Shown: in pieces, positions 22,388 to 39,714 of the stretch | How the letters are laid out: each line of letters begins with the position of its first letter | Position numbering within the stretch: position 1 is the stretch's first letter | Source: Patescibacteria group bacterium | GTDB lineage: Bacteria; Patescibacteriota; Minisyncoccia; Phycocordibacterales; JACOZG01 | DNA length: 64,000 bases | Direction of reading: 5' to 3' | Assembly (NCBI GenBank): GCA_038065495.1 | Contig: JBBTQW010000002.1 | Coordinates: 261,373 to 325,372, forward strand | Made by a program: the position numbers and the translations under genes | Notes under the pieces: model-generated | Told to the model about the DNA's origin: nothing | The model's input: only the letters and a program-made list of their open reading frames with translations | The model's database searches: none

Positions 22388-25156
22388 TTAGTAGCTAAAC
22401 AAATTCGGAAACATGCCGTAGAGCCAACTGCCCAGACTATCACTAGCGCTGGCAGTTTGATTGCCGCCAGAGAGATAAGCGTGATTGCTCGCGACGATGT
22501 TGAATGGAACACTTACAGCAGAGTTGTACTCTGGGTTAGTCGATGAAACCACGACAATGACATAGCTACCGGGCGTCACAGGATTGGCCGTCAGATTTTG
22601 CCCAACTGTCCAGCGAAGTTTTTTCTCGTTTACAACAGCGATTTGTCGCAAATTAACTCGATTGGCACCATCAGACGGAGTGGCAATATAGACCGTATAG
22701 CTGTAGTTCCCCGACCGACTATCCTGCCACTCAATATTTCGTTGTTCGCCCAATCTCCAAGAATCACCGGCGCGTGGTCGATCAATAGAAATGGTGGAAA
22801 CCGGCACTGGAGCTGGGACTGGCGCAGGAGCCGGTGGTGTCGGCGTCGGAGTTACGACGGGTGGAACAGTTGGAGCAGGAACGGTAGGAATAGGCGGAGT
22901 TGGATTGACTACCGGCGGTGTTGTTGTAATTACACCGGCGGTTAAGCTCACGCTACCGAGACTGAAAGCCTGGACGGAAGACCGACCAGCCGCGCTAACT
23001 GGAGCCAGACTATCAATGACCTGGACCCAGTAATTGCCCGGCGCGAGCGTCTTGACGACGCCGTTGACGGTCACTCGACCAACAGTCCAGTTGAGGCTTT
23101 TTTCGCCAGTGTCATTGATCAAGCCGTACCAAGAACCACTCTGGGTGGAAGCATAAACTTTGTACCGACCAGGAGAATAGCTCTGGCCAAGATGTGACCA
23201 GTTGATCTCGCGCACGCTACCAATCGGCCAGACTTCGCCACCACGAGGGAGATTGACGGAGAGGATTGGAAGAACGGGAATTGGAACATTGTTAAGAGAG
23301 AAAGTGACACCGTTTGCTGTCACGTTGCTGGCATTGGAAATATCAAGATTATTGAAGTTTGAATCAATCCCCACAATACGAGAAGCTAAGAGAGTCGGAG
23401 AGAGCGAAACATTGTCGGCACCAGCGACAATATCAGCCTTGAATGTGATGTCTCTTCCGGGTTCAAGAAAAATTTTCAAATTCGTGAAGTCAGCGACTAT
23501 CGCGCCAGAAACTGGATCACAAGGACAACCAACCGACGAGGCACCATAAATATTAGTCCCATCAACTAAGCGAATATTGGTCAATTTTTTACCGGCAACC
23601 GTAGGATCAAGAGCAAGACCTAAGCCAGTAACTGTAGACGCACCATTATTTGACAGTAGGCGAAACACCCCCAAAACTACATTTTCAGTCACAGTAGTAG
23701 CTGAAGTTGTAACCGTTCTCGCGGCTGGAGAACTTGGACTGATTGCAGTGTAGATTTGCGCTCCGGTCACTCCTTTCATCTCAAACCCGACCATATTGCT
23801 CGCTCCAGTTGTAGGAGAAACCACTTGGACAGAATAGAACCCAGCAGGGTAAGGCCGACCGGAAACGGGTTCGATCATTGAGTGATAAATAGTCGTACCA
23901 TCTCCACCGACTACTGGATTTTCATTAGTCTGACTAACGAGAGCACCAGTTTGTCTGTTGTAGACCTTAATTGTATTCCCTGACGCGGGAAAACGCGTGC
24001 CGATAATTTGTAGGTAGCACTTTTCAGCTGGTGGGAGACAGCCCAAAACCGCAGCCGAAGTGATGTAAGGCGCGCGCTCACCGAAAACAGCGAGGGAATT
24101 ACTAATTGCTGGAGAATTGGTGAGAGTAATCCACTGACACCAACCATTAGAGGGGCAGAAAGCCATTGACCAAAGTACACTAGAGTAACTGCCACCAAAC
24201 ATTACTTGTGGATTGAAGTTCGCAACAATGCGAAAAGTCTGAGTAGTGCCGGCTGGGATACTTAGACCCTGGCTAATATCCGGCGTGGTCGTACCCGATC
24301 GCGGCCAGCTACTGCAGAAATGGTAATCTGGCAAACCCGGTACAGTGCAATTATTACTTTCTACATAAGGATACACCTGTATAATAAAACCTGGAGGCAA
24401 CACCACACCTTCTGCGCCAGCCGTGATATCCACATTGTAAGTGGCTGTTAGCGCTGATTCTTGCTGATTGCTATCGTAAGTGAGCGCAAGTGTAGGATTA
24501 GGTTGAGCGGTAACGGTTGGCGCGCCTGTCACAGACACGGCCACGCTCACCTGCGCTTGATTGCCATTCACGTCGGAACTGTAGAAAGTGGCCGTGTAAG
24601 TGCCAGAGTGCGTATAAGTGTGCTGGAAGCTTACGCCCCACTGATTAACTTGGCCGGAAGTCTGGGTGCCATCGCCCCATTCCACCGAGGCGCTGGTGAC
24701 CGTATTGATATTGGTCCACGAGTACCAGAAATTATTTTGATTAGTAAAAACGAGCGATGGGCCGGAAATTTGCGTAATCTCGAGCACTGGAGTAGCCGGT
24801 GCCACGCCAGAGCTATTGGCTTTGCCACTGATCACCGTGCCGGCTTTGTTGGTGGTTTTTTTACTGCCGGCTTTGATCGTTAACTTGTTGGGATTGGTTG
24901 GCGCCTTAGTTGGATCAACTTTGGCTGGGCCTTTGGCTTTGTCCCGAGCGGCTGTGAGCTGGGCAACAAGCGGATTAGGCACAGCTGGCTTAGCGGCCGA
25001 GACCGCTGCCACTTGTGTGGCGGCCGGCGTAGCCGGCCACAGCCAGCTAATTAAATTCTGGAAAAAAGACGGTCTAGTTTCCGTCGTCTGGGCGTAAACC
25101 GTGCCAGTTACAACCAGAGTAACGAGCACTAGAACCAAAAGTAGTTTCTTGATCAT
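22388..25156 (-). CDS. Large secreted surface protein: signal peptide, PKD domain, Ig-like beta-rich region, PT-rich linker and two C-terminal Kre9/KNH-like (PF10342-like) modules.
   Basis: Signal peptide MIKKLLLVLVLVTLVVTGTVYA. PKD signature VEWGDGTQTSG...FQHTYTHSGTYTATF. PT linker PVVNPTPPIPTVPAPTVPPVVTPTPTPPAPAPVPAPVP. Repeated module NLPRGGEVWPIG..EINWS...GRYKVYAST.SGSWYGLIN... 922 aa. Confidence 0.75.
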   Translation of the reverse strand: MIKKLLLVLVLVTLVVTGTVYAQTTETRPSFFQNLISWLWPATPAATQVAAVSAAKPAVPNPLVAQLTAARDKAKGPAKVDPTKAPTNPNKLTIKAGSKKTTNKAGTVISGKANSSGVAPATPVLEITQISGPSLVFTNQNNFWYSWTNINTVTSASVEWGDGTQTSGQVNQWGVSFQHTYTHSGTYTATFYSSDVNGNQAQVSVAVSVTGAPTVTAQPNPTLALTYDSNQQESALTATYNVDITAGAEGVVLPPGFIIQVYPYVESNNCTVPGLPDYHFCSSWPRSGTTTPDISQGLSIPAGTTQTFRIVANFNPQVMFGGSYSSVLWSMAFCPSNGWCQWITLTNSPAISNSLAVFGERAPYITSAAVLGCLPPAEKCYLQIIGTRFPASGNTIKVYNRQTGALVSQTNENPVVGGDGTTIYHSMIEPVSGRPYPAGFYSVQVVSPTTGASNMVGFEMKGVTGAQIYTAISPSSPAARTVTTSATTVTENVVLGVFRLLSNNGASTVTGLGLALDPTVAGKKLTNIRLVDGTNIYGASSVGCPCDPVSGAIVADFTNLKIFLEPGRDITFKADIVAGADNVSLSPTLLASRIVGIDSNFNNLDISNASNVTANGVTFSLNNVPIPVLPILSVNLPRGGEVWPIGSVREINWSHLGQSYSPGRYKVYASTQSGSWYGLINDTGEKSLNWTVGRVTVNGVVKTLAPGNYWVQVIDSLAPVSAAGRSSVQAFSLGSVSLTAGVITTTPPVVNPTPPIPTVPAPTVPPVVTPTPTPPAPAPVPAPVPVSTISIDRPRAGDSWRLGEQRNIEWQDSRSGNYSYTVYIATPSDGANRVNLRQIAVVNEKKLRWTVGQNLTANPVTPGSYVIVVVSSTNPEYNSAVSVPFNIVASNHAYLSGGNQTASASDSLGSWLYGMFPNLFSY

Positions 25157-25230
25157 GATAATTTAGAAATTAAAAATATTAATACTCAATTATTATCACC
25201 CAGAAAGCTTAATTATGCTATTTTATAGTA

Positions 25231-26022
25231 ATGAAACTGGGGATAAAAATTCTAAGCGCGATTTTGGCGCTATATATTTTCGTCTTTTTTGCCGTCAAAT
25301 TTGGTTGGACAAATGTAAGAGGCGTAGTAGACAAGCAACTAGCGCAAGTAAGCGCGCTTGAGCTCGTCACGCCAGCTTGGGCAGAGAGCGAAGAATGGCA
25401 AACTTTAAAATTAGCGATTCTAAAAGACAAAGCTGTCTTAGAAAAAGTCGCGAGCGAGACTGACTTGCCAGCCAGACTAATTGTTGCCGCGATTGTGCCA
25501 GAGCAATTGCGCTTATTCCACGACGAACGCGAGATTTTCAAACAAGTTTTCTTACCACTCAAGATTCTGGGCAATCAGACGCAGTTTTCTTGGGGCGTGG
25601 CGGGATTGAAGCCGGAAACGGCAGAAAAAATTGAGCAGAATTTATTAGATCAGACTTCGGTTTTTTACCCGGGTGCTAAATATCGTGATTTATTGAACTT
25701 GCAAACCACAGACACTGACCAAAATAGTGCTAGATTTGCGAGAATTACGGACGAGCAAGATCGCTATTTTTCTTATCTCTACACGGCGCTTTATTTGCGC
25801 CAAGTGATGAGCCAGTGGGAAAAAGCCGGCTTTGATATTTCCCAGAAACCAGAAATCCTCGCTACTTTATTTAATATCGGCTTCCAGAATTCTGTGCCAA
25901 AGGCTAACCCTCAGGCTGGTGGTAGTGAGATCGAAATTGCTGGCCAGAAGTACAGCTTTGGCAGATTAGCTTACGAGTTTTATTATTCTAGAGAATTAGA
26001 AACAGAATTTGTGAGAAACTAA
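25231..26022 (+). CDS. Membrane-anchored hypothetical protein.
   Basis: N-terminal TM helix (ILSAILALYIFVFFAV). 263 aa. A TATAGT box lies 1 nt before the ATG, so the transcript may be leaderless. Confidence 0.5.
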   Translation: MKLGIKILSAILALYIFVFFAVKFGWTNVRGVVDKQLAQVSALELVTPAWAESEEWQTLKLAILKDKAVLEKVASETDLPARLIVAAIVPEQLRLFHDEREIFKQVFLPLKILGNQTQFSWGVAGLKPETAEKIEQNLLDQTSVFYPGAKYRDLLNLQTTDTDQNSARFARITDEQDRYFSYLYTALYLRQVMSQWEKAGFDISQKPEILATLFNIGFQNSVPKANPQAGGSEIEIAGQKYSFGRLAYEFYYSRELETEFVRN

Positions 26023-26033: not shown

Positions 26034-27194
26034 TTATAGATTCAAGAACGCCTGCCACACATTTGCTAGCCAGTTAAATTGAGAAAAACCAGAAGTACTC
26101 CGCACCAGCTCCACACTGCCAGCGCTCAAGACTTTCAGCGAACTCACGCCAGTATCTTTCACCACGGCAATCCAATAATTACCGGGTGAGAGGGTTCTGG
26201 GCACGCCATTTACCGTCACTCTCCCCACTTGCCAGTTTAAGCTTGGTTCGCCCGTCTGGTTGATCAAACCATAATAAGAGCCGTCCCAGGTAGAAGCGTA
26301 AATTTTATAGAGCCCTGGCGAATATTTATAATTAGTTTCGGACCAATTTATTTCTTTCGTCGCGCCAATCGTCCAGACTTCACCACCGCGCGGCAAGTTC
26401 ACGACTAAATCTGCACGAACCGGGTTAGCCGCGGGCGTGGAATTACTGCCAGTGACTGGTGGCACGGGATTAGTTGGTGGCGTTGGCGTGGGATTATTGG
26501 GAGCAATGTTCAAGTTAGCATTAATCGCCTGCGAGAGTTGCGCCCACGGTGCGCCCGGCAAATGGTAAGAATTGGCCGCCGTTTTGGCATTGTATTGACA
26601 ATAAGGCATGCCATTCTCATGACGATTGGGGACCGAGCCATCAATACAGCAACGCTTGTCATTAGCATACTTGGTGCCATCTAGACCTTTGGCCACTTTT
26701 CCAGTTTGACCCATAAATTTGCAAGCGGCGCCTTCCAAACCCTTAGGCTGGCAATATGGATAAGAGGGATATTCGGCAACCATCGCTCCCCGATCTTCGG
26801 TCGCATTGCAACACCAAACTTGTTTGCCGTCGGTAGTCGTACCAGCCAAGCTGGAGCCACCCGGGCAATTGGTGCTGGTGGGCTTGGGCGGCACGCACAC
26901 AGCCACATTGGCCACCGAACTATCAGAGACGCCACAAGAGTCCTGCTTGTAGCAACAAGTTGACTTAGTCCCAGCTGGGCAAAATTTGCCATTGCTCGGA
27001 GCCGCCTCGCACTTGGCTTTGATCGTCTGACAATAACCGACCCAGAAACCAGCTGGCTGCTCGTAGAGATTATTACAACAATAATCGCCACTTTTTGTAT
27101 AACCACTTGGACAATTAGCAGCTAGCGCCTGACTAGAAACTAAAAACAGAATAATTACTAAAACTGTGTAGAAATATTTTCTTAACTTGTTCAT
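26034..27194 (-). CDS. Secreted Cys-rich protein with a PT linker and a C-terminal Kre9/KNH-like module paralogous to the 922-aa protein.
   Basis: Signal peptide MNKLRKYFYTVLVIILFLVSSQALA. About 28 Cys in the first 200 aa (CPSGY..CCNN..C..C). PT linker PNNPTPTPPTNPVPPV. Module VNLPRGGEVWTIGATKEINWSETNYKYSPGLYKIYASTWDGSYYGLINQTGEPSLNWQVGRVTVNGVPRTLSPGNYW. Confidence 0.7.
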   Translation of the reverse strand: MNKLRKYFYTVLVIILFLVSSQALAANCPSGYTKSGDYCCNNLYEQPAGFWVGYCQTIKAKCEAAPSNGKFCPAGTKSTCCYKQDSCGVSDSSVANVAVCVPPKPTSTNCPGGSSLAGTTTDGKQVWCCNATEDRGAMVAEYPSYPYCQPKGLEGAACKFMGQTGKVAKGLDGTKYANDKRCCIDGSVPNRHENGMPYCQYNAKTAANSYHLPGAPWAQLSQAINANLNIAPNNPTPTPPTNPVPPVTGSNSTPAANPVRADLVVNLPRGGEVWTIGATKEINWSETNYKYSPGLYKIYASTWDGSYYGLINQTGEPSLNWQVGRVTVNGVPRTLSPGNYWIAVVKDTGVSSLKVLSAGSVELVRSTSGFSQFNWLANVWQAFLNL

Positions 27195-27439: not shown

Positions 27440-27467
27440 GCAAGAACGAGATGATCAGTGAACCCAA

Positions 27468-27526: not shown

Positions 27527-28366
27527 TTACTTTCTCCCTTTCTTCTGCCGGCGCGTAACACGGAAGACATCAGAATACTTTTTAACGCGGCGCGTTTTGC
27601 GACCACCAGTAATCTTGCCGTGAGCAGTCTTGGGCCGGCGCGTACCGCGACCTTGGCGGCCCTCACCACCACCGTATGGGTGGTCCACCGGATTCATCGC
27701 CGAGCCACGGACAGTGGGCCGGATACCCAACCAGCGTGAACGTCCAGCTTTGCCCAGGTTCATGAGCTTCTGCTCTTCGTTCGAGACCGCACCGATCGAG
27801 GCCCAAGCCGTTTCTCGCACTTGTCGCACTTCTGTTGATGGCAACTTGAGCGAAGTATAACCAGCGTCGTTGGAGAGAACCTGCGCAAAAGAGCCCGCCG
27901 AGCGCACCAGCTTGGCCCCGCCGCCGGGTTGCAACTCAATATTGTAGACGAAAGTGCCGACCGGGATCTTCTTGAGCGGCAAGCGATTGCCTGTCTTTAC
28001 TTCCGCTTCGGCAGAAATAGCAAATTTATCGCCCACGCGCATACTCGCTGGCAAGAGCACATAGCGCCGCTCACCATCGGCATACAGCGCAAGACCGATT
28101 AAGCCACTACGATTTGGGTCGTATTCTACACTCTCAATCTTGGCGGGAATGTTGATTTTGTTGTATTTAAAGTCAATCTCGCGGAAGAGTCGCTTGTGGC
28201 CACTGCCCTTGTGGCGCACGGTGATCCGGCCCACATTGTTACGACCCACCGCGCGCTTGCGACCGTAGGTGAGCGCCTTCGCCGGTTCATTGCGAGTAAT
28301 TGTGCCACGATAAGTCACTGTAGAGGCTTGGCGACGAGATGGCGTGTATGGATTATAAGCTTTCAT
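27527..28366 (-). CDS. rplB: 50S ribosomal protein L2.
   Basis: GRNNVGRITVRHKGSGHKRLFREIDF and the C-terminal GGGEGRQGRG. 279 aa. Confidence 0.92.
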   Translation of the reverse strand: MKAYNPYTPSRRQASTVTYRGTITRNEPAKALTYGRKRAVGRNNVGRITVRHKGSGHKRLFREIDFKYNKINIPAKIESVEYDPNRSGLIGLALYADGERRYVLLPASMRVGDKFAISAEAEVKTGNRLPLKKIPVGTFVYNIELQPGGGAKLVRSAGSFAQVLSNDAGYTSLKLPSTEVRQVRETAWASIGAVSNEEQKLMNLGKAGRSRWLGIRPTVRGSAMNPVDHPYGGGEGRQGRGTRRPKTAHGKITGGRKTRRVKKYSDVFRVTRRQKKGRK

Positions 28367-28367
28367 G

Positions 28368-28652
28368 TTATTTTAGTTTTTCACCAGCCTTGAGATAAAT
28401 TACGGCTTTTTTCATACCTGGCCGTTGGCCAATTTTACCTCTCACCAACACTTTTTTGCCAGTCAAGTTCATGATATTAATCTTTCTGGGTGTCACATTA
28501 TAGAGTTGCTTGATTGCCGCGCGGATGAGTGGCTTGTTCGCATCACGAGCGACTTCGAAGTTATAGACACCCTGGAGTGCCGACTTTTCCGTCGCCAGTG
28601 GCCGGCGGAGGACGAGTGTTTCTTGACTAAGTTGTTTGCCGAGTTTGGACAT
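28368..28652 (-). CDS. rplW: 50S ribosomal protein L23.
   Basis: 94 aa. Sits between L4 and L2, matching the conserved S10-operon order. KVLVRGKIGQRPGMKKAVIYLKAGEKL. Confidence 0.85.
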   Translation of the reverse strand: MSKLGKQLSQETLVLRRPLATEKSALQGVYNFEVARDANKPLIRAAIKQLYNVTPRKINIMNLTGKKVLVRGKIGQRPGMKKAVIYLKAGEKLK

Positions 28653-28658
28653 GATTAT

Positions 28659-29432
28659 TTATTTGGCTTTTGCGCGAGCTTCTAAGATTGGCAAGAGCAG
28701 TTCCGGATTAGCTAGCACCAGATACTGATAATTCAAAACTAATTCTGGATTCAAGTTCCGCGCTTCTTCCACCGCTACACCCGGCAAATTACGGAAGCTC
28801 TTCCAAGTCTTCTCATCCGCGCTAGGCAAAGCGAGTAGTGTTCTATTACCTTTTTTATAACTAATTTTTTCCAGACCCTTCACCTTGGCCAGATTATTAA
28901 CCACCTTCTGCGCGTCTTGCGCCTTTGGTTTAGCAAATTTTAACGCTTCTAGCAAGATCACTTCGCCCTCGCGCTGCTTCTGGGAAATTACCGTAAAGAG
29001 CGCTTTCGTCTTCATCTTTTTATTAATTTTCTTGTCGTAATTTTTCTCCACTCTTGGTCCGTGAGTCACGCCGCCACCGCGCCAGATTGGCGAACGGCTA
29101 GAACCGTGACGCGCGCGGCCGGTACCCTTCTGCCGCCAAGGCTTCCGGCCGCCGCCACGCACTTCGCCCCGTGTCTGGGTGCTAGCCGTGCCCGCGCGCT
29201 GATTAGACTGCATCGAGACTAGAACTTGGTGGACTAGATCGCCATTCCATGGCAAGCCAAAAATCGCTTCTGGCAAATCAATTTGCCCAGACTCTTTGCC
29301 AGCCTGGCTGTAGATTTTACCTTCCAGCTTTAGCTTGGCTGTTTTAGTCTTAGCTTTAGCTGTTTTTTCAACTTTCACAGCTTCTTCAGTTTTGGTTTTT
29401 TTACTGGCCATAAATTTCGAGTAGCGTACCAC
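28659..29432 (-). CDS. rplD: 50S ribosomal protein L4 with a Lys-rich N-terminal extension.
   Basis: QRAGTASTQTRGEVRGGGRKPWRQKGTGRARHGS core. 257 aa (the start may be M8 at 29411). Confidence 0.88.
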   Translation of the reverse strand: MVRYSKFMASKKTKTEEAVKVEKTAKAKTKTAKLKLEGKIYSQAGKESGQIDLPEAIFGLPWNGDLVHQVLVSMQSNQRAGTASTQTRGEVRGGGRKPWRQKGTGRARHGSSRSPIWRGGGVTHGPRVEKNYDKKINKKMKTKALFTVISQKQREGEVILLEALKFAKPKAQDAQKVVNNLAKVKGLEKISYKKGNRTLLALPSADEKTWKSFRNLPGVAVEEARNLNPELVLNYQYLVLANPELLLPILEARAKAK

Positions 29433-29955
29433 GACGACCCGGCACTGCGCCGCTAACTAAGAGTTGATTATTCTCTGAATCAACTGCCACTATTTTCAAC
29501 TTCTGGACCGTCACGCGCTCACCGCCCATACGGCCAGCCATGCGGATACCTTTCGCTACCCTGCCACCAGCACGGCCACCGCCGCCGCCAATCGCGCCCG
29601 GCTCGCGCTCGCTATGCTTCTGACCGTGCGTCCGTGGTCCACCGTGGAAGCCGTGTCGCTTAACCACACCCTGGAAGCCTTTGCCTTTAGAGATGCCAGA
29701 AACCGACACAGTATCACCGGCCACAAACTCAAAATTCGGCTCTTCCGCACCGCGCACTTCCCGCTTCACCGTCTTCACCTTCTTGCCTTTGGTCTCAGTT
29801 AGCGTGACCTGGCTCGCTTCGTAACCATCACGAGAAACCGTCTTCTTCTGCGACACAGAGAGAGCGCCCGTGGCAATAAGCGTCGCTGGAACCACCCGAC
29901 CAGCGTCGTTAAAGATTTGCGTCATCTTCAGTTTTTGGCCAATAATAAATTTCAT
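29401..29955 (-). CDS. rplC: 50S ribosomal protein L3.
   Basis: GKGFQGVVKRHGFHGGPRTHGQ and a Gly-rich loop. 184 aa. Confidence 0.9.
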   Translation of the reverse strand: MKFIIGQKLKMTQIFNDAGRVVPATLIATGALSVSQKKTVSRDGYEASQVTLTETKGKKVKTVKREVRGAEEPNFEFVAGDTVSVSGISKGKGFQGVVKRHGFHGGPRTHGQKHSEREPGAIGGGGGRAGGRVAKGIRMAGRMGGERVTVQKLKIVAVDSENNQLLVSGAVPGRRGTLLEIYGQ

Positions 29956-29992
29956 AACTGTACTGTAATAATTACAGAATCTTGCTTCCGCT

Positions 29993-30364: not shown

Positions 30365-30378
30365 GTTTTTTATTTTAT

Positions 30379-31581: not shown

Positions 31582-31650
31582 AATTTTTTATTATTTATTA
31601 AACTTACTAATTTATAAGCGAAAGAAAACTAGCGCAAAATGCGTTGCTCT

Positions 31651-31679: not shown

Positions 31680-31685
31680 ATATAG

Positions 31686-32273
31686 CTATTTCGTGAAGCG
31701 GAAGGTGGAGAGGATTTGTTTAAATACCGGTTCGGGGTTATAAGCATTTCGCTTAGAACTAAAAAACCATCGATACACTGTATTACCAAGATCAAGATAG
31801 GCTTCAATAATTTCCGCATCTTCGGCTTCTGGCTCGAATGTGTCAAATCCCTCGCTAGCGATCGAAATCATACCATTCTGACCTTTGGTAAGTTTGTAAT
31901 AGTTACCGCCAGTATAACTGGGCACACCATTAATCGTGAAAGACATTGTCACGTCACCAGAAACCGAAAGGTCTTCGATCCGCACCCCAAAGAAACTTGC
32001 CCCAGGATAAACCTCAACGATGTTTTCAGATAATTTCCAACTTGTCGGATACTTAAACTCAAACCCATATTTCTCGTTTTTGTAAGTTTTCCAATCTTTT
32101 GTTTCATCTACAACTGGCGCTGGCTTCGTGGTGAAAGAATTATCGGGAGTGTTTAAGATTGGCGCCGTGGCACTGGGCTGATAAGAATAATCTGGTTGCA
32201 CTTGATTGTAGAAAGTGTAACCAGCAAAACCAAGAACCACGAGCACAAGCAAGATGATGATTGTATTTTTCAT
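31686..32273 (-). CDS. Membrane-anchored, secreted hypothetical protein (195 aa) carrying a YGFEFKYPTSW motif.
   Basis: ATG at 32273 and N-terminal TM segment MKNTIIILLVLVVLGFAGYTF. The 511-aa ORF-track call is an artefact: its upstream part runs antisense through the GC-rich lipoprotein gene. Confidence 0.6.
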   Translation of the reverse strand: MKNTIIILLVLVVLGFAGYTFYNQVQPDYSYQPSATAPILNTPDNSFTTKPAPVVDETKDWKTYKNEKYGFEFKYPTSWKLSENIVEVYPGASFFGVRIEDLSVSGDVTMSFTINGVPSYTGGNYYKLTKGQNGMISIASEGFDTFEPEAEDAEIIEAYLDLGNTVYRWFFSSKRNAYNPEPVFKQILSTFRFTK

Positions 32274-32393
32274 GCCACTAATCTTAGCAACTAAATTTAG
32301 ATTTGACAAAATTAGGGCGATTTTGATAAAGTGAAAGTTGCTGTTTTCTAGGTCATTGTGAGCTAGAAATAAATTAGGAACACTACTTTTTTC

Positions 32394-33041
32394 TTGGAGG
32401 AAAAGCAGATGAAACCGCGTATTGTGGCCGCTTTGGCTGTGGCTTGGGTTATGCTGCTCAGTGGTTGCGCTTCTTCGGAGAGAGACACCCTCTCTCTGTC
32501 GGGCTTCAAGTCCGTTACCGTCGTGGTGAAGGTGCAGGAGAACCTGCCTTACGCTTCCGACAAGCTGACCGAGCTGGCGCAAAGGGGTATAGACGATGTC
32601 ATTGCCAGCAACCTGACCTGGTCCAAGACGGCGAAACCGCGAGCCGAGCTGACGCTGGAAATCACCGACATCTACGAGCCGTCTGAAGCAGCGCAATTGA
32701 CGATCGGCATTCCTTACCAGATCAAGTACACGCTTACCGGCCGAGATGCCGAGACGAAAGCGCCATTGGGTGTGGTCTACGGCTTGAGTAAAGCGCGAGT
32801 GAGAGCCAGTATCTTGGTGGAAGGTTCGCAAGCCGCGTTCTTCGACAAGAACTTCGAGCGCGGCTGGAGCGACGGGACCCGCCAGAGTCCGATTGTGGGA
32901 CAACTGGTCGTCAATTTCGAGCGAGATATCAATCACGCGAGAAAAAGACAGCCCTCTCTTGCTCCCACTCCCCAGCCACAGTCGCCTCAAGACAAGCTGG
33001 TGGTGAACAAGGGACGACTCGTCGCACTCAACGGAAACTAA
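32394..33041 (+). CDS. Lipoprotein (lipobox LLSGC). GC-rich and carries a strong Shine-Dalgarno site.
   Basis: MKPRIVAALAVAWVMLLSGC. GGAGG 9 nt before the ATG. GC visibly higher than its neighbours. Convergent with fusA across a shared terminator. Confidence 0.65.
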   Translation: MEEKQMKPRIVAALAVAWVMLLSGCASSERDTLSLSGFKSVTVVVKVQENLPYASDKLTELAQRGIDDVIASNLTWSKTAKPRAELTLEITDIYEPSEAAQLTIGIPYQIKYTLTGRDAETKAPLGVVYGLSKARVRASILVEGSQAAFFDKNFERGWSDGTRQSPIVGQLVVNFERDINHARKRQPSLAPTPQPQSPQDKLVVNKGRLVALNGN

Positions 33042-33077
33042 AGGGGGTGATCCTACTCTTTCTAGTTCGAAATTCAA

Positions 33078-33132
33078 AAACTCCGACACGACATGTGATC
33101 CATGTGCCGTGACGGAGTTTCTTTTTTTATTT
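33078..33132. terminator. Long bidirectional intrinsic terminator shared by the lipoprotein gene (plus strand) and fusA (minus strand).
   Basis: actccgacacg...cgtgacggagt forms an 11-bp stem with one mismatch. The loop is itself palindromic (acatg/catgt). A TTTCTTTTTTTATTT run follows on the plus strand and an AAAAA run precedes it. Confidence 0.75.
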
Positions 33133-33138
33133 AAAAAA

Positions 33139-35280
33139 TTATTTCCTAGCTTCCACAATCTTGGCCGCCACACTAGCTGGCACGATTTCGTATTTATCAA
33201 ATTCCATAGTAAAGTTGCCACGACCTTCCGTCATCGAGCGGAGCGTGGTCATGTAGCCGAACATCTCGGAGAGTGGCACAGTGGCGCGCACGGCTTTGAT
33301 CAAACCTCTGTCTTCCGTCCCCTCAATCTGCCCGCGACGGCCAGCGAGCGAACCAGTGATATCACCCATAAACTTTTCCGGCACGGTGATCTCCACTTTC
33401 ATCACTGGCTCAAGCAAGACGGGATTGCAACGCTTAGCACCTTCTTGGAAGGCCATGGAAGCAGCAATTTTAAACGCCATTTCGGACGAGTCCACTTCGT
33501 GATAAGAACCATCATAAAGCTCGCAAGAAACATCCACCATGGGGAAGCCCGCCACCACGCCGCGCTCCATTGCCTCGCGCAAGCCCTTCTCCACCGGCGT
33601 AATAAACTCTTGCGGCACCACACCACCCTTGATAGCGTTGATAAACTCAAAGTGCGCCTCGCGTGTTACATTTTTTGCAATCTTTTTATCTGGATTAACC
33701 GGCTCAAGTGGTTTAAATCTGATTCTGACGTGGCCATACTGACCGCGGCCGCCAGACTGCTTGATATATTTGCCTTCGGCCTCGGCGGCCACGGTGATGG
33801 TCTCGCGATAAGCCACTTGCGGCCGGCCCACATTGGCCTCCACGCCAAACTCGCGCTTCATCCGGTCCACGATAATCTCGAGATGCAACTCGCCCATGCC
33901 GGAGATGATCATTTCGCCAGTTTCTTCGTCACTCTTGATGCGGAAAGTGGGATCTTCGTCAGAAAGCTTTCTTAGGGCAATACCCATTTTCTCCTGATCA
34001 ACTTTGGTCTTTGGCTCAATTCTTAATGAAATAACTGGCTCGGGGATATCAATGCCTTCGAGCAAGACCGGCTTATCCGGATCAGTCAGCGTGTCGCCAG
34101 TTTTGGTATCTTTCAAGCCCACCGCGGCGGCGATATTACCAGCGAAAATTTCTTTGATTTCTTGGCGGTCATTGGCATGCAAGCGCACAATGCGGCTGAT
34201 GCGCTCTTGCTGGCCGGTGCGGGCATTGAGCACATAAGAACCAGCAGCGAGCTTGCCCGCGTAGACGCGGAAGAATGTGAGCGAGCCCACAAATGGATCC
34301 GTGGCGGTTTTGAAGGCGAGCGCAGCAAAAGGCGCTTCGTCCGCCGCTGGCACGAGGATATTCTCACCGGTTTTCTCATCAATCGCTCTGGCCGGCGGAA
34401 TGTCGAGTGGGCTTGGTAAATAATAAGCAATCGCGTCGAGCGCCAATTGCACGCCTTTATTCTTGAGCGCCGAACCGCAGAAGACTGGGAAAATTTTGTT
34501 CGTGATCGTGGCTTGGCGCAAGAGTTGGCGCAAACGCGCGAGATCAATCTCTTTGCCCTCCAGATAATCCGTCATCGCGGCGTCGTCCTGCTCCACAATC
34601 TTCTCGATTGTCGCGGCGCGCTCTTTCTTGGCCTGCTCCAGCAAGTGCGCTGGGATGTCTTTGGTCTTCGTTACAATCTCGCCCTTATCGCCGCTAAAAG
34701 TAATGTATTCTAGGGTGAGCAAGTCCACAATGCCCTTAAAGTCTGCCTCGAGACCGTCCGGAATCTGCAACTTTACCGCTTTGGGCGAGAGTCGGTTAAG
34801 AATAGAATTAAAAGAGTTCTCAAAAGAGGCGCCAGTCCGGTCAAGCTTATTGATAAAACAAATTCGTGGCACTTTGTAATCATCCGCGTAACGCCAGTTG
34901 GTCTCGCTCTGCGGCTCCACTCCGGCCACACCGTCAAAGACGACAATCGCGCCATCCAGCACGCGCAAACTCCGCTTCACCTCGATTGTAAAGTCGATGT
35001 GCCCGGGTGTATCGATAATATTTAACCGCACTTTCTCGCTCTCCTGATCTTTTAGCTCTGTTGGCAGCCAGTAGGCCGTAGTAGCCGCCGCGGTAATGGT
35101 GATGCCACGCTCGCGCTCTTGCTCCATCCAGTCCATTACCGTGTCGCCCTCATGCACCTCGCCAATTTTGTGCGAGATACCAGTGTAAAATAAAATACGT
35201 TCAGAAACAGTCGTTTTACCAGCGTCGATGTGCGCGATAACGCCAAGATTACGGATTTTATCAATTGGATAGTCGGCCAT
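33139..35280 (-). CDS. fusA: Elongation factor G.
   Basis: NLGVIAHIDAGKTT, DTPGHIDF, and 713 aa overall. Confidence 0.97.
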   Translation of the reverse strand: MADYPIDKIRNLGVIAHIDAGKTTVSERILFYTGISHKIGEVHEGDTVMDWMEQERERGITITAAATTAYWLPTELKDQESEKVRLNIIDTPGHIDFTIEVKRSLRVLDGAIVVFDGVAGVEPQSETNWRYADDYKVPRICFINKLDRTGASFENSFNSILNRLSPKAVKLQIPDGLEADFKGIVDLLTLEYITFSGDKGEIVTKTKDIPAHLLEQAKKERAATIEKIVEQDDAAMTDYLEGKEIDLARLRQLLRQATITNKIFPVFCGSALKNKGVQLALDAIAYYLPSPLDIPPARAIDEKTGENILVPAADEAPFAALAFKTATDPFVGSLTFFRVYAGKLAAGSYVLNARTGQQERISRIVRLHANDRQEIKEIFAGNIAAAVGLKDTKTGDTLTDPDKPVLLEGIDIPEPVISLRIEPKTKVDQEKMGIALRKLSDEDPTFRIKSDEETGEMIISGMGELHLEIIVDRMKREFGVEANVGRPQVAYRETITVAAEAEGKYIKQSGGRGQYGHVRIRFKPLEPVNPDKKIAKNVTREAHFEFINAIKGGVVPQEFITPVEKGLREAMERGVVAGFPMVDVSCELYDGSYHEVDSSEMAFKIAASMAFQEGAKRCNPVLLEPVMKVEITVPEKFMGDITGSLAGRRGQIEGTEDRGLIKAVRATVPLSEMFGYMTTLRSMTEGRGNFTMEFDKYEIVPASVAAKIVEARK

Positions 35281-35303
35281 TTTTCTCTAAAAAATAAAAA
35301 TAA

Positions 35304-35783
35304 TTAGCTCTGCGGCTTGCGTGCAAAGTGGGCGAAAGCGCGGTTAGCCTCGGCCATGCGGTGCACGTTCTCGCGGCGCTTGATTGTCTCGCCCTCGCCC
35401 TTGGCGGCAGCCATAATCTCATCGGCCAGCTTATTCTTCATTGGCTTACCTTGCCGGCCACGCGTAAACTCCAGCATCCAGCGATAAGCCAGCGTTAAGC
35501 GCCGCTCTTCGCTGACCTCGTGCGGGATCTGATAGTTGGCACCGCCCACGCGCCGGGTTTTGATTTCCATCAGCGGCGCGGCGTTATTAATCGCGGTTTC
35601 CAACACTTCCAACGGCTCTTTCTTCGTCACTTTCTTGACCTCATCCAGCGCACCATACACAATCGCCCGAGCAATACTCTTGTGACCTTTTTCCATCACA
35701 TAATTAATCAACTTAGCCACTTTTACCGAATCATAACGATGATCGGGAGCGAGAATTCTCTTTGATTTTAATTTACGACGCAT
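35304..35783 (-). CDS. rpsG: 30S ribosomal protein S7.
   Basis: 159 aa: KLINYVMEKGHKSIARAIVYGAL....MEIKTRRVGGANYQIP. Confidence 0.92.
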   Translation of the reverse strand: MRRKLKSKRILAPDHRYDSVKVAKLINYVMEKGHKSIARAIVYGALDEVKKVTKKEPLEVLETAINNAAPLMEIKTRRVGGANYQIPHEVSEERRLTLAYRWMLEFTRGRQGKPMKNKLADEIMAAAKGEGETIKRRENVHRMAEANRAFAHFARKPQS

Positions 35784-35809
35784 TTATTTTATTTTTGAAA
35801 AAATTTAGA

Positions 35810-36220
35810 TTACTTTGGCTTCTTAACACCATATAAACTGCGCCCCTTCATGCGCTTATCCACGCCAGAGGCATCTAGCACGCCACGCACAATGTGATAA
35901 CGCACGCCGGGCAAGTCTTTCACCCGTCCACCTCGGATCACGACAACAGAGTGCTCTTGCAAATTGTGGCCAATGCCTGGGATATAAGCTGTTACCTCCA
36001 TGCCGTTCGTCAATCTCACGCGCGCGATCTTCCGGATAGCCGAGTTTGGCTTCTTAGGCGTAGTCGTCTTGACCTGCGTGCAAACTCCACGCTTAAAGGG
36101 CGCCGGATAGAAGATCGGCTTATTCTTGAGGTTATTAAAGCCTCGGGCCATCGCCACGCTCTTGGTCTTGCGCCGGATAATCTGGCGCTTGCGCTTTACT
36201 AATTGATTGATGGTAGACAT
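35810..36220 (-). CDS. rpsL: 30S ribosomal protein S12.
   Basis: [12 protein letters not shown]...[61 protein letters not shown] at 36220. The ORF-track GTG form at 36235 overlaps an upstream hairpin. Confidence 0.92.
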
Positions 36221-36226
36221 TTGCGA

Positions 36227-36283
36227 GAAAAACACCCGCCGAAGCGAGTGTTTCTATCTTAGCAGATTGCAACTGGGTGTCAA
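36227..36283 (-). promoter_or_regulatory. rpsL promoter (TTGACA, 16-nt spacer, TAAGAT) followed by a UUCG-tetraloop hairpin and a U5 run. The hairpin doubles as terminator for the upstream surface-protein gene.
   Basis: RC of 36278..36283 is TTGACA and RC of 36256..36261 is TAAGAT. Hairpin at 36232..36251 has 8 bp including one G-U and a uucg loop. U-run at 36227..36231. The rpsL ATG sits 6 nt after the U-run. Confidence 0.4.
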
Positions 36284-36287
36284 ACGG

Positions 36288-37715
36288 CTAATTAGTCGTG
36301 ATGGCAAAAACAGTGAAATTGACGGTATTGCTCGTGCCGTTCGCGTTGGTAACTGAAACCGGATAAACGCCGGGTGGCGTGAGATATTGTGCTACCAGAC
36401 AAGGCGGATTACCAGCCGAACAAGCGTAATACCGACTTGTTGGAACAGTGAAGGTGAGCGTGGTGCCGTTATTAGTTGAATTGAGACTGTAGCTTGGATT
36501 AAGCTCGGTGTTCAAATCACCAAACTTGATCTTGTTACCACTTGAAGTGAAACCGGAACCAGTGATGGTTACTTGCGCGCCGACTGCGGCGCTGGCTGGC
36601 GAGAGAGCGGAGATAGCTGGCGACTGAGTGACGCCCGAAGTGATGGTGAAGGGATTATTGCTAGAATCGCAATTAGTAGTTGCGCCAGCGGGACAAATTC
36701 TCATCAAATACTGACCAGCAGGGATTGGTTTATCGGCAATATCAGTCGCGACAATCCAGTGATAAATACCACCGAGACCACCAGCAATATTTTTATCTAG
36801 TACATAAGGGGGAAGGAAAACGGGCAGAGGACAAAGTCCAGCATTGGGTCCGACGAGGATACAACTCGGCACATAGTGGTCTAAATATAAATCAACTTTA
36901 CCCCAATCAGCCGACGGAAGACAGGTGGAGCAAAGAGCGATATTATTTGCCCACTTGATATCCTGAACCGAATTAGCCACCCAAGTTTCTCCCCCATTTG
37001 GCGAAGTGACAGTGATACCAGATTGATTAGAATCGGCTGGCGAAACTCTAATCGAGTAAGCTTGGCTGACTGTTTGTGTACCATTGGTAACCTGAACGGT
37101 AAAGTTGTAGGAGCCCGCGAGCGAAGCGAAACCAAAAATCGCCGTTCTGGTTAAGTTTGGTGCGTCACACGGTGGCATAACGATACCGGGACAAGTGACG
37201 ATGTGCGGATCACCAAGCTCCAATCCCCTTGGCAGAGCACCCCCAGAGATAGACCACTTCAGATCATCCGTGCTCTTAAACCCAACAGCCATTAACTGCT
37301 GTCGGTAGAAATCATCAACATTGGCAACATTAGGTACTAGTACCCTAACCTCTGCGTCAGGTAAAATTGTTGGAGTGATGAAGAATCTTTGCTGACACCC
37401 ATACAAACTATCCAACTTCGCCCGAGTAATTGGCCCAACATAACCGGTGCCGGGATGGATCACGTTATTCTCTTCCTGCCAAGCGATCACCGCCACCTTG
37501 GTTAGCGCGCCAAAGTAACCTGTTGGTGTGGTGATGTGGAGGTAGCCGCCCTGAATCAGAAATTGCTGCAGCGCGCTAACTTCTGCTCCTAGGCTACCAA
37601 TGGTTAGATTTCTGGTTAAGACAGGCGCACAGCTCGGCGGAAGTGGCGTTAGAGCAAAAACAGTCTGAGAAAACAAAACACCAAAAACTAAAGCCAGGAT
37701 AAAGAATTTTTTCAT
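36288..37715 (-). CDS. Secreted protein: signal peptide, PG_binding_1-like domain, Ig-like domains and a Kre9/KNH-like module.
   Basis: MKKFFILALVFGVLFSQTVFA. GAEVSALQQFLIQGGYL....GYFGALTKVAVIAWQ (peptidoglycan-binding repeat). ITVTSPNGGETWVANSVQDIKWA (PF10342-like). Confidence 0.7.
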   Translation of the reverse strand: MKKFFILALVFGVLFSQTVFALTPLPPSCAPVLTRNLTIGSLGAEVSALQQFLIQGGYLHITTPTGYFGALTKVAVIAWQEENNVIHPGTGYVGPITRAKLDSLYGCQQRFFITPTILPDAEVRVLVPNVANVDDFYRQQLMAVGFKSTDDLKWSISGGALPRGLELGDPHIVTCPGIVMPPCDAPNLTRTAIFGFASLAGSYNFTVQVTNGTQTVSQAYSIRVSPADSNQSGITVTSPNGGETWVANSVQDIKWANNIALCSTCLPSADWGKVDLYLDHYVPSCILVGPNAGLCPLPVFLPPYVLDKNIAGGLGGIYHWIVATDIADKPIPAGQYLMRICPAGATTNCDSSNNPFTITSGVTQSPAISALSPASAAVGAQVTITGSGFTSSGNKIKFGDLNTELNPSYSLNSTNNGTTLTFTVPTSRYYACSAGNPPCLVAQYLTPPGVYPVSVTNANGTSNTVNFTVFAITTN

Positions 37716-37745: not shown

Positions 37746-38207
37746 CTACTTCACTTCTATCAAGAAAGTGGCTGCCCCAGTTTGCTTAGTCAGATTAGTC
37801 GCCGAAGCTTTTATCAAGTATTTGCCGGCAGTTTTATAAGTGTGATTAAAAGTCACCAATTGCTCGTGCTGGCCGGATAAATGTGACGGCGTAAGAGTGA
37901 AGTTGGCCAAGCCATCGCCCCAGTCCAGGCGATAAGTCATCGGCGCGTCTTGTTGCTCGGTGGCTACCAGCGTCCACTGGCCATTCTCACCCACTGCAAT
38001 TGTCTCCGGACCAGTAATAGAACTAACAATGGGGCCAAGAATTAGCGCACTAGCCGTAACAGCCGGCTTCTGACTCTGCCGGGCGACGATGAGCTGGAGA
38101 ATCGCTAAGATCTGCTCGCGTGGCGTGCTGGCGGCACTGGTAAGAACTGGCACGATTACTGACGCCATCACTAGCGTCAGTAAGAATATTTTTAATTTTT
38201 TAGTCAT
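37746..38207 (-). CDS. Small secreted protein with a PKD domain.
   Basis: Signal peptide, YRLDWGDGLANFT...FNHTYKTAGKYLIKASATN, 153 aa. Confidence 0.65.
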   Translation of the reverse strand: MTKKLKIFLLTLVMASVIVPVLTSAASTPREQILAILQLIVARQSQKPAVTASALILGPIVSSITGPETIAVGENGQWTLVATEQQDAPMTYRLDWGDGLANFTLTPSHLSGQHEQLVTFNHTYKTAGKYLIKASATNLTKQTGAATFLIEVK

Positions 38208-38256
38208 ATCTGCCTATTATAACAGAACAACCGAAATATTTTCTAGTTTAACTTTA

Positions 38257-39714
38257 CTAACGTACATTCACACTCAAGCTCGTCCGTGCAGTAAGGCCGG
38301 CGCTATCGGTAACAGTGAAAACTGGTGAGAACGTGCCAGCGCGAGTGTAGTTGTGAGTAAAGGTCGCACTTTGAGTAAACATGGCACTCCGCGCCACCGA
38401 GGCCGAGCTAACGCTGGAGCTATCGCCCCAGTCTACCGTGTAAGTAAGCGCGCTATTTTCCAGATCAGTAGCACTAACCGTCCAAGTGCCAGTGGCGCCA
38501 AGCCCAAGAATCGTTGGCCCAGAGACAGCCGAGATTACCGGTGGCTGATTGGTCTGATTAGCCGTCGTCAAGCGGATCGCTCCGGAGCTCGCCTTGGCCA
38601 AGACCTGGGGCATGGGATTAGGCAAGAGACAACCGCCATAGCATGGCGTGCGGTCAAAGAGCGCAACTTCTATGAGATACTCGCCTGGTCTAACGGTGTC
38701 ACACATGTCGCCCCAGCAGCCGGTGCTTGGCACAGTGATCGTCCAGCTACCATTGCGCGTAAACTCGCCAGCGGCAAAGCGCTTGAGATTAACATTAGTC
38801 GAGCCGAGCAAGTTAAGTTGTAATACAGCGCCAGTTGGGATCTCGCCAGCAATCTGCCAAGTAATCGTCTGACTAGAACCAGCTGCCCAAGAATTGCCAC
38901 CGGTTGGCGCGAGCACCTGCATCGTGGGATTAGGCAAGCTGGTGCCAACTCTAATGTTTAATCTTGAGCTATCGCTTTTCCCAGTCTGATCCGTGACGGT
39001 AAAAATAGCAGTATAAGTGCCGGGATTATTGTAGGTGTGAGTGAAAGTCGCGGTCTGACTCACGCGATCATTCTCATTATTACTCTTCAGCACATTAGCG
39101 GCAGAAATGGTGTCGCCCCAGTCCACACGGTAAGTGAGCGAACTCTTAGCTGGCGCGGTCGCGCGGATTGTCCAAGTGCCAGTCACGCCCGGATTGAGAT
39201 TATTGGGACCAGAAACACTCTGGATGACCGGTGTGCGGTTGTTGCTATTTGTCACGCAAGGGTAGAGCGCTTGCAACTTGGCGCGAGTGAGTGGGCCCAC
39301 GTAGCCAGTCTGGATAATCCCCGACTTGATCTGAAAGTGGATCACGGCCGAAGCGGTAGCCTCACCGAAAACATTTTTATCATCACCAGCAAACTCAAAG
39401 CCAGAAGCGGTGAGCGCCGCGTGCAGATCAACTACGTCCTGGCCGCGTGCGCCAACGCCCAGATTGCGCTCAAAGCGCGAGCAAGATTTTTTATCTTTAT
39501 CATCATTCTTGTCGCTATTCTTAACATCACTCTTATCGATCATCATCGAAGAACTGCGCCACCAACCCCAGCGCGACAAGAGATCCCGCAACACTTGGAA
39601 GCGTGGTGAAGACTTATCGTCGTTATTATCGTTATTTTCTGCCAGCGCTGGTGTAATGAGAAAACTAAAGAGCATCACGCTTAGCAAACCTAAGACGAAA
39701 ATTCGTCGATTCAT
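38257..39714 (-). CDS. Secreted protein with a PG_binding_1-like domain and two PKD domains.
   Basis: Likely start MNRRIFVLGLLSVMLFSFLITPALA. GQDVVDLHAALTASGFEF...FGEATASAVIHFQ. YRVDWGDT...FTHTYNNPGTYTAIFTVTD and YTVDWGDSS...FTHNYTRAGTFSPVFTVTD. Confidence 0.7.
   Translation of the reverse strand: MNRRIFVLGLLSVMLFSFLITPALAENNDNNDDKSSPRFQVLRDLLSRWGWWRSSSMMIDKSDVKNSDKNDDKDKKSCSRFERNLGVGARGQDVVDLHAALTASGFEFAGDDKNVFGEATASAVIHFQIKSGIIQTGYVGPLTRAKLQALYPCVTNSNNRTPVIQSVSGPNNLNPGVTGTWTIRATAPAKSSLTYRVDWGDTISAANVLKSNNENDRVSQTATFTHTYNNPGTYTAIFTVTDQTGKSDSSRLNIRVGTSLPNPTMQVLAPTGGNSWAAGSSQTITWQIAGEIPTGAVLQLNLLGSTNVNLKRFAAGEFTRNGSWTITVPSTGCWGDMCDTVRPGEYLIEVALFDRTPCYGGCLLPNPMPQVLAKASSGAIRLTTANQTNQPPVISAVSGPTILGLGATGTWTVSATDLENSALTYTVDWGDSSSVSSASVARSAMFTQSATFTHNYTRAGTFSPVFTVTDSAGLTARTSLSVNVR

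Follow-up and report, generated by a model that had tools for sequence, protein, structure and literature searches.

How are large secreted proteins held at the cell envelope in Patescibacteria, the bacteria of the candidate phyla radiation (CPR)? In these bacteria, whose lifestyle depends on surface contact, the building of the envelope and the retention of large adhesin-like proteins are largely unknown. The question is raised by a 64,000-nt stretch of DNA (the window) from the genome of a groundwater Patescibacteria of the Paceibacteria/Parcubacteria type, proteins identical to which are found on contigs of the 0.1 µm groundwater fraction of Hainich well H41 and in NCBI records under the name 'Patescibacteria group bacterium'. 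Here, two clusters of Sec-exported envelope proteins, built of immunoglobulin-like (Ig-like) modules (PKD, TIG and PF10342-like), flank the str/S10 ribosomal genes. A first-pass annotation had described five of these proteins as a paralogous modular family and had noted that two of them, of 922 and 386 amino acids (aa) and here called P922 and P386, end in Trp/Phe-rich tails that could be an unrecognised C-terminal anchoring or sorting signal. We found that these tails are, as far as the compared sequences go, local aromatic variants of an undescribed C-terminal motif that runs through the lineage, and that proteins bearing the motif are typically encoded beside the gene for a conserved single-pass membrane protein, TM263.

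A C-terminal motif shared across the lineage

The two proteins and their tails were located as follows.

22388..25156, minus strand: P922, a 922-aa secreted multi-domain surface protein (open reading frame, ORF; PKD_4 and Kre9_KNH Pfam matches below cut-off; ortholog P0005, 63% identical)
22391..22444, minus strand: C-terminal tail of P922, SDSLGSWLYGMFPNLFSY, kept in the ortholog P0005 as SDSLGSWWYETFPSWFGN; its hydrophobic positions fit the lineage motif by hand alignment
26034..27194, minus strand: P386, a 386-aa secreted protein (ORF; homologs P0001-P0003; AlphaFold2 (AF2) model; no Pfam family)
26037..26087, minus strand: C-terminal tail of P386, FSQFNWLANVWQAFLNL, kept as NWLANVWSVLERLFNR in P0002 and as EWLASVWQLISDRWGRR in P0003

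Both tails sit at the C-termini where they had been reported, and conservation in P0002, P0003 and P0005 extended to loci from other genomes of the lineage in GTDB. In many Paceibacteria, large proteins with signal peptides carry, no more than 10 residues from the C-terminus, a motif of 13-18 residues that reads approximately A-S-[IV]-W-[DQ]-[SA]-Φ-x-x-Φ-Φ-G-Φ-COOH (Φ, hydrophobic) and follows a linker rich in Ser, Thr, Pro and Gln. Among the large proteins encoded next to TM263 in metagenome loci, about 22 show this pattern at the C-terminus (for example PASIWDSIKGLFGF, SSVWQSFMNLLGF, ATIWDALKTILGL, ASAWQSFKSLFFGR and QMAGLLQGLQGLLKTLGR); the C-terminus of P0006, a distant relative, is TASIWDSMKSFLGL, and that of a further protein, NWLANILTAVFGQ, is close to the P386 tail.

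A hidden Markov model (HMM) of 19 tail cores from the metagenome loci was run against 80 additional loci, taken from GTDB species genomes; two contigs already represented in the training data were removed before matches were counted. Fourteen of the 18 matches of at least 2 bits lay within 10 residues of the C-terminus, where 3.6% would be expected by chance (p = 1.6e-17), and the matched proteins had a median length of 992 aa (for example, those ending in EASIWDAFKRLFGF and RASIWSAIKSLLGF). A regular expression for the tail matched 19 of 377 C-termini, compared with 12 internal matches in 97,678 positions. With an HMM whose seed lacked P386 but contained the homologs P0002 and P0003, the P386 tail scored 7.4 bits at distance 0 from the C-terminus. 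In P0002 an extra stretch of ~190 residues, comprising a linker and a further domain, lies between the shared Ig-like module (described below) and the tail, and the tail is still present.

Judged by these alignments, the pattern that defines the tail is an amphipathic periodicity of hydrophobic and small residues, with one Trp/Phe position and a penultimate Gly, and not the aromatic richness by which the two tails had originally been picked out. Hydrophobicity along the aligned core peaked at a period of 100 degrees (0.37, versus 0.06-0.17 at 160-180 degrees), which points to helical and not to beta structure. Apolar runs in the tails reach 7 residues at most (median 4), too short for a tail to span a membrane. 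The helical moment of tail-bearing C-termini was 0.57, compared with 0.45 for other C-termini (p = 5e-7), with values of 0.51 for P386 and 0.35 for P922.

No Pfam or NCBIfam model matched the tail, whether full proteins or, at E ≤ 10, isolated tails were searched, and our literature search found nothing relevant on a C-terminal signal of this kind in Patescibacteria. Known C-terminal sorting or wall-binding modules (LPXTG, PEP-CTERM, WxL, SLH, LysM and others) were discarded as candidates, having given no Pfam or NCBIfam match, as was an outer-membrane beta-signal or donor strand, the periodicity of the tail being helical and not beta. The idea of an unrecognised anchoring or sorting signal is thus a fair hypothesis for a sequence that is conserved, C-terminal and covered by neither database.

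TM263, a candidate partner

The gene for TM263 lies between those of P922 and P386.

25231..26022, plus strand: TM263, 263 aa, with a single transmembrane helix at the N-terminus and an ecto-domain that is mostly helical; divergently transcribed from P922

We found TM263 in 44 metagenome loci and in at least 102 GTDB species genomes, at 40-87% identity, in genomes labelled Taylorbacteria, Paceibacteria, Parcubacteria, Vogelbacteria or Nomurabacteria. Its outer domain is conserved, and the alignment holds 26 invariant columns. In most loci rpsL-rpsG-fusA is followed by TM263, which is encoded on the opposite strand, by at least one large secreted protein, and then by tuf-rpsJ onward; in the window, as in the related locus L003, the TM263-P922 pair instead follows rplB. 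TM263 is the immediate neighbour of 18 of the 27 tail-bearing large proteins, and the tail was present in 29% of the large secreted proteins adjacent to TM263 versus 13% of those not adjacent (Fisher p = 0.018).

As to what TM263 might be, 25 of 32 members gave a sub-threshold match to DUF1402, on which no mention was found in the literature; neither a PDB sequence relative at E ≤ 10 nor a PHROG was detected. The single-sequence model reached a predicted local distance difference test (pLDDT) score of 44, and its Foldseek matches are meaningless. No protease or transpeptidase family was detected beside the sub-threshold DUF1402 matches. The order E91 ... SWGVMGIK ... LFNIGF may recall SLT/lytic-transglycosylase motifs (ES ... 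GLMQ ... AYNAG), a lead only.

How the tail might act

The reading we favour, to which we give slightly less than an even chance on the strength of the sequence patterns, is that the tail would fold as a short amphipathic/aromatic helix that holds the C-terminus at the cell envelope. The helix would either lie in the interfacial region of the cytoplasmic membrane's outer leaflet or dock onto a conserved envelope partner, for which TM263 is the obvious candidate. The m1 type of the shared Ig-like module would then sit close to the cell, the variable N-terminal domains would project outward, and PG_binding_1 domains would provide a separate, non-covalent attachment to the wall. A bolder extension, which we consider doubtful, is that the tail and TM263 might together form a new, Paceibacteria-specific system of surface display, with TM263 as tail receptor or processing enzyme. 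Its cargo would be giant, fast-evolving Ig-repeat proteins encoded in the str/S10 operon and highly expressed, possibly as an S-layer or a host-attachment coat.

Several observations weigh against an anchoring helix or against a link with TM263. Many neighbours of TM263 have no recognisable tail, and the adjacency of TM263 to tail genes may simply reflect conserved synteny around fusA. The P922 tail is the least helix-like, a weak amphipathic helix that contains Pro and Gly and whose moment falls at the 27th percentile of ordinary C-termini, and the helix that AF2 placed in the P386 tail (residues 373-384) was modelled with a confidence below 50. The C-termini behind the HMM and the regular expression had been picked by eye, and a few of the genome loci, of which two were excluded, duplicate training contigs. 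We also rejected the notion that the tail substitutes for PG_binding_1, as 15 proteins carry both and 12 carry the tail alone.

Among the alternatives, one that we regard as unlikely holds that the tail is an assembly helix, which would bundle with other tails or with helices that follow the signal peptide and so link subunits into oligomers, fibres or an S-layer-like lattice. In many members the signal peptide is indeed followed by a heptad-like helix (for example LQAQIQSLLATIASLQAKL), and a helix such as QMASVLESVRATLEGIRASLGN is present at the C-terminus; P922, P505 and P153 (the latter two encoded across the ribosomal block) have N-terminal aromatic or amphipathic segments; and the embedding in the str operon suggests high expression. 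However, the canonical tail, of the ASIWDSIKGLFGF type, has only 13 residues, the Trp/Phe and Gly in its core are unusual for coiled coils, and N-terminal helices are not universal among tail-bearing proteins.

By analogy with known sorting systems, the tail could instead be a recognition signal for a sorting or processing enzyme, with TM263 as that enzyme or as the receptor; cleavage or exchange of the tail would go with covalent attachment of the protein or with its transfer to a site of assembly. We judge this improbable. C-terminal sorting domains are marked by their C-terminal location, by occurring several times per genome and by N-terminal signal peptides on their carriers (Haft, 10.1101/2023.06.07.544157). 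The tails share the location and the signal peptides, a conserved membrane protein is encoded next to them, and there is more than one per genome (P386 and P922 here; at least two per locus in L006, L007, L011 and L013). Yet they contain no transmembrane segment and no consistent basic cluster, and thus lack the tripartite design; in TM263, with its one transmembrane helix, no protease or transpeptidase family was detected; and no invariant residue upstream of the motif marks a cleavage site.

Still less probable, in our view, is that the tail has no role of its own and simply completes the domain before it, as its cap or final element of secondary structure, or is a C-terminus of biased composition retained through common descent. 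The tail does directly follow the m1 module in P386 and P0003, and AF2 confidence is low. But this motif is found behind unrelated domains and behind long linkers of low complexity, in quite different architectures; the P0002 tail has been kept across its ~190-residue separation from the module; and the positional enrichment (p = 1.6e-17) speaks against this reading. Were the tail only a helical cap, the finding would reduce to an ordinary family of Ig-repeat surface proteins.

Finally, a role as donor strand, by which Ig-like subunits would polymerise through strand exchange in the manner of CPR Pam or chaperone-usher pili, is suggested by the Ig-rich proteins, by weak local NCBIfam matches to CPR_pilus_PamR and by the analogy with Pam pilins, which polymerise by donor-strand exchange (10.64898/2026.03.03.709456), but it is disfavoured as highly improbable, since the PamR scores are 23-44 bits against a cut-off of 300 and cover a PKD/FnIII-like stretch only, the tail periodicity is helical, the donor strands of Pam pili are linkers between domains or strands at the N-terminus, PamR carries a transmembrane helix at its C-terminus, and no chaperone-like genes were seen adjoining the surface-protein genes.

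A 13-residue C-terminal motif together with an adjacent gene for a conserved single-pass membrane protein gives a sequence handle that could serve for listing the displayed surface proteome of Paceibacteria from genomes alone. The motif and TM263 could also be used to test the anchoring mechanism in vitro.

The shared Ig-like module

The proteins in the window share a module of ~105 aa with the pattern P.GGE.W..G....I.W...PG.Y, of which there are five copies in four proteins. Three of the copies lie in the two tail-bearing proteins, as listed here, and the other two are in P475 (aa 232-360) and P505 (aa 283-403).

22937..23266, minus strand: P922 module m1, aa ~631-740; 'LPRGGEVW...YAST.DGSWYGLIN...PGNYW' subtype; 38 bits with its own group left out
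22490..22798, minus strand: P922 module m2, aa 787-889; Kre9_KNH 22.4 bits, E = 2e-4, profile positions 2-94 of 94; left-out HMM 44 bits
26103..26411, minus strand: P386 module, aa 262-364; BLASTP; left-out HMM; AF2 beta-sandwich, pLDDT ~70; Foldseek Ig/Fn3-like

In BLASTP comparisons among the five surface proteins, P922 residues 627-738 matched P386 residues 258-363 at 62.5% identity (E = 9e-40), the second P922 copy matched P386 (E = 3e-12), P505 matched both P922 copies (E ~1e-4), and P475 matched over a 24-33-residue N-terminal motif only. A nine-copy alignment that included homologs from other metagenomes had invariant columns P, G, W, I, W, G, W, G and Y. We then omitted each group of copies in turn from an HMM and scored the held-out copy, which gave 38 and 25 bits for the m1 type, 44 for m2, 23 for P505 and 15 for P475 (N-terminal part only), compared with at most 5.7 bits for all other ORFs of the window, including PKD and TIG Ig-like domains. 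The possibility that the copies share generic Ig similarity only was rejected on these scores of 15-44 bits. Within the window, the P475 copy is supported over its first ~25 residues only, and the rest of it is supported by P0007 and by a 495-aa protein of L004. The module had been reported as present twice in P922 and once each in the proteins at 26034..27194 and 36288..37715, which our searches bear out; the fifth copy, in the 505-aa protein, had been overlooked.

A resemblance to the Kre9/KNH family PF10342 had also been proposed. Two copies fell just under its gathering score of 24.6 bits (P922 m2, 22.4; P505, 18.6), and no match at E ≤ 1 was reported for P922 m1 or for the P386 and P475 copies. 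A profile of the nine module sequences reached 8363 cluster representatives at E ≤ 1e-3 in an exhaustive search, many of them giants with 10-56 tandem copies. The sampled matches P0119 and P0125 pass PF10342 (6e-42, in 7 stretches, and 3.6e-22), and three of the four closest word-indexed matches (P0008-P0010) were already annotated with it, so that the proposed kinship holds through sub-threshold direct matches and a profile that reaches bona fide PF10342 proteins. AF2 modelled P386 residues 262-363 as all-beta with moderate confidence (pLDDT ~70), and the top Foldseek matches in the PDB are Ig/Fn3-like (E = 7e-4 to 1e-2; TM-score up to 0.66 on the target).

The module is a divergent member of a very large PF10342-like family of extracellular Ig-like repeats, and as such is ordinary and not new. 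Its motif architecture (P.GGE.W..G....I.W ... PG.Y) and beta-sandwich fold are those of the 'SPNGGE.W' repeat of giant bacterial surface proteins. The window copies differ in lying below the gathering score, and m1, with 56-91% identity across architectures, is a narrow and unusually conserved subfamily, detected in no more than a handful of Patescibacteria proteins. Many of the profile matches end in a 'GVYFYRL...KKMLLLK'-type sequence, which is presumably the sorting domain of the type IX secretion system (T9SS; Por-type). On this reading, most of the top PF10342-like relatives are T9SS-type cargo with Por-type C-terminal domains, unlike the window proteins, which have none.

Age and conservation of the module copies

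The best-matching pair of copies, P922 m1 and the P386 module, had been described as near-identical and as lying across the ribosomal operon from each other, and on these grounds recent duplication or gene conversion had been suggested. None of this survived closer comparison. Both copies lie to one side of the ribosomal block, separated by 3 kb; they are 63% identical in protein (67.5% over an 80-residue core) and 60% in DNA; of the 74 residues that are identical, only 26 share a codon, no exact DNA match is longer than 9 nt, and synonymous sites are saturated. Identities within the m1 type are highest between orthologs (91% for P922 m1 and P0005 m1, 77% for the P386 and P0002 modules) and lowest for the within-genome pair of P922 m1 and the P386 module (63%), so that copies cluster by ortholog type and not by genome. 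The codon-level comparison and the identity matrix rule out recent duplication or gene conversion, and by the same measures the five copies are old paralogs, the best pair being an old duplication under purifying selection.

The m1 module is the best-conserved part of the proteins that carry it. Between P922 and P0005 it is 80-95% identical, with flanks at 20-46%, and between P386 and P0002 the m1-type module is 71-90% identical and the remainder 24-45%. Across P0002, P0003, P0005 and L003 3649-5364, the subtype shows 56-91% identity, while other parts are at 20-45% or unrelated. It always lies near the C-terminal end, and what follows is the tail, either by itself or after a Pro/Thr-rich (PT) linker with m2 or after a different domain. 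Going by these identities, m1 is under strong purifying selection, and its far better conservation than that of its flanks argues for a specific conserved interaction and not for a spacer role. Of the first-pass annotation, the part on the module concerns something ordinary and the gene-conversion idea is wrong; the tails were correctly observed, and from them an undescribed, lineage-wide motif and a candidate gene for its partner have emerged.

Domain content of the surface proteins

From its N-terminus, P922 consists of a signal peptide, an aromatic segment, a sub-threshold PKD, an unassigned beta-rich middle, m1, a PT linker, m2 and the tail. P386 consists of a signal peptide, a Cys-rich domain, a PT linker, the m1-type module and the tail. 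The remaining features of the surface proteins are as follows.

25034..25072, minus strand: aromatic segment of P922, PSFFQNLISWLWP, right after the signal peptide; identical in P0005
36288..37715, minus strand: P475, secreted; PG_binding_1 at aa 43-101, a Cys-containing module variant at 232-360 and TIG at 366-468 (Pfam); no tail
37746..38207, minus strand: P153, a small secreted protein with a single PKD (Pfam PKD_4, 29.5 bits, above cut-off)
38257..39774, minus strand: P505, secreted; PG_binding_1 at aa 110-167, PKD at 179-274, module at 283-403 and a second PKD at 409-502 (Pfam)

N-terminal signal peptides were present on all five of these same-strand ORFs (22388-25156, 26034-27194, 36288-37715, 37746-38207 and 38257-39774). 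The longest ORF of P505 starts at 39774; a normal signal peptide, MNRRIFVLGLLSVMLFSFLITPALA, directly follows the Met at 39714, and from this the true start is probably Met21 at 39714, giving 485 aa; the range given in the first-pass annotation ends at this same position. The description of a paralogous modular family of secreted surface proteins is supported, as are the PT-rich linkers and the PG_binding_1 domains in two proteins (PF01471, cut-off 23 bits): P475, which NCBI names 'peptidoglycan-binding protein', scored 37.8 bits and P505 37.3 bits, and P386 and P922 are without this domain. P475 also passed the TIG cut-off, at 29.3 bits. Two counts required correction. PKD domains (PF18911/PF00801, cut-off 27), previously assigned to five proteins, were given by Pfam in three proteins and four copies, namely two in P505 (60.9 bits), one in P153 (29.5 bits) and a sub-threshold one in P922 (22.5 bits), with none in P475 or P386. 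The domain previously credited with 28 Cys, in P386, has 18.

This Cys-rich domain (aa 27-200; window 26595-27116) is beta-rich and was modelled by AF2 at pLDDT 70-86 on a very shallow alignment, and it matched no family in Pfam, NCBIfam or PHROG. Three homologs each were found for P386 and P922 among 5.8 billion proteins, and no relatives of P386 were found in GTDB species genomes.

Amphipathic or aromatic helix-like segments directly after the signal peptide were seen in P922 (PSFFQNLISWLWP), P505 (~39540-39600) and P153 (~38090-38130), the latter two as FQVLRDLLSRWGWW and REQILAILQLIV, and relatives in L006, L007, L008 and L046 have forms such as LQAQIQSLLATIASLQAKL. These segments loosely resemble the C-terminal tails, and some proteins thus have such segments at both ends.

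Genomic setting

All genes relevant here are on the minus strand except TM263, which has the opposite orientation. In minus-strand order, P505, P153 and P475 lie directly upstream of rpsL-rpsG-fusA, which is followed by a 195-aa secreted protein, tuf-rpsJ-rplC-rplD-rplW-rplB, a 332-nt gap, P386, TM263 (plus strand) and P922.

27527..36235, minus strand: ribosomal block rpsL-rpsG-fusA-(195-aa secreted protein)-tuf-rpsJ-rplC-rplD-rplW-rplB (ORFs; Pfam labels of identical public contigs)
31686-32273, minus strand: protein of 195 aa, secreted or anchored in the membrane, that weakly matches PsbP_2, in the fusA-tuf gap
32409-33041, plus strand: 210-aa ORF with a textbook lipoprotein signal, MKPRIVAALAVAWVMLLSGC..., and no Pfam family, in the fusA-tuf gap

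In related loci, such surface-protein genes lie between fusA and tuf or after rplB. Their repeated placement in three different gaps of the str/S10 operon suggests that they are among the most highly expressed envelope proteins. The fusA-tuf gap (31686-33041), which holds the TM263 cassette in many relatives, is occupied here by the two other ORFs listed above. The S10 operon ends at rplB, with rpsS-rplV-rpsC and later genes absent from the window; L004 also breaks after rplB and continues with an aminotransferase, L003 has a surface-protein gene after rplB, and in L048, a more distant relative, the ORFs directly after rplB have the sizes expected for rpsS, rplV and rpsC, an identification by size only.

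The gap between rplB and P386 contains a perfect sigma-70 consensus promoter (27258-27285, plus strand: TTGACA, a 16-nt spacer with TG, and TATAAT), downstream of which are a ribosome-binding site and an ORF (27308-27439) that encodes a 43-aa peptide with one transmembrane segment, MKIRLTTALIALITIFGLATIGLGTWQVYKEVSHTIGFSGPCR. Beyond this ORF comes a GC-rich hairpin of 12 bp (27467-27493), and the same hairpin stands just past the rplB stop on the other strand. Promoter and terminator scans showed no enrichment over shuffled sequences, and neither an Rfam family nor a tRNA was found in the window.

On the same strand as P922 and 63 nt downstream of it lies a gene for a coupling-protein ATPase of the VirD4/TraG/TrwB type (20624-22324, minus strand; T4SS-DNA_transf 3e-10, TrwB_AAD_bind 2e-9, phrog_5156 3e-59), in which N-terminal transmembrane helices are not obvious and of which no homolog was found in the first 44 related loci (L005-L048). 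Upstream of the surface genes, 1-20627 holds a long run of glycosyltransferase-like and polysaccharide-deacetylase-like genes, labelled by reading the sequences, with one weak Pfam deacetylase match. Downstream, 49285-57400 holds a type IV pilus block of PilB-/PilC-like genes and pseudopilin-like proteins with N-terminal 'GFTLVE' motifs, also labelled by reading.

Comparison with known anchoring and pilus systems

The CPR Pam pilus resembles the proteins described here in being made of CPR-specific Ig-like envelope proteins with signal peptides. Its pilins are PamA/B, and PamR is its anchor, with a C-terminal transmembrane helix (10.64898/2026.03.03.709456). None of the five surface proteins has such a helix, and pam-like chaperones and a donor-strand linker are likewise missing here. 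Scores against PamR (NF058578) were 22.7-44 bits over a 50-80-residue Ig-like (PKD/FnIII-like) stretch, and it is because of this shared stretch only that the weak matches arise; membership of the Pam pilus was rejected, these scores being far under the NCBIfam equivalog cut-off of 300 bits.

With LPXTG/sortase, PEP-CTERM/exosortase, GlyGly-CTERM/rhombosortase and MYXO-CTERM, the tail shares its C-terminal location, its occurrence several times per genome, the signal peptides of its carriers and the nearby gene for a conserved membrane protein. It differs from these tripartite signals in having neither a transmembrane segment nor an Arg cluster, although some tails end in a single Arg, and no sortase-like or intramembrane-protease family was detected in the Pfam and NCBIfam scans.

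The Escherichia coli enzymes PBP5 and PBP6 are exported proteins with C-terminal amphipathic-helix membrane anchors. By analogy, the tail would be comparable to these anchors in being a short peptide at the extreme C-terminus of a Sec-exported protein, with helical periodicity and too short to span the membrane. There is no sequence relationship between the two, and the tail differs in its cargo of giant Ig-repeat proteins, in its restriction to one lineage and in its conserved Trp/Phe and penultimate Gly.

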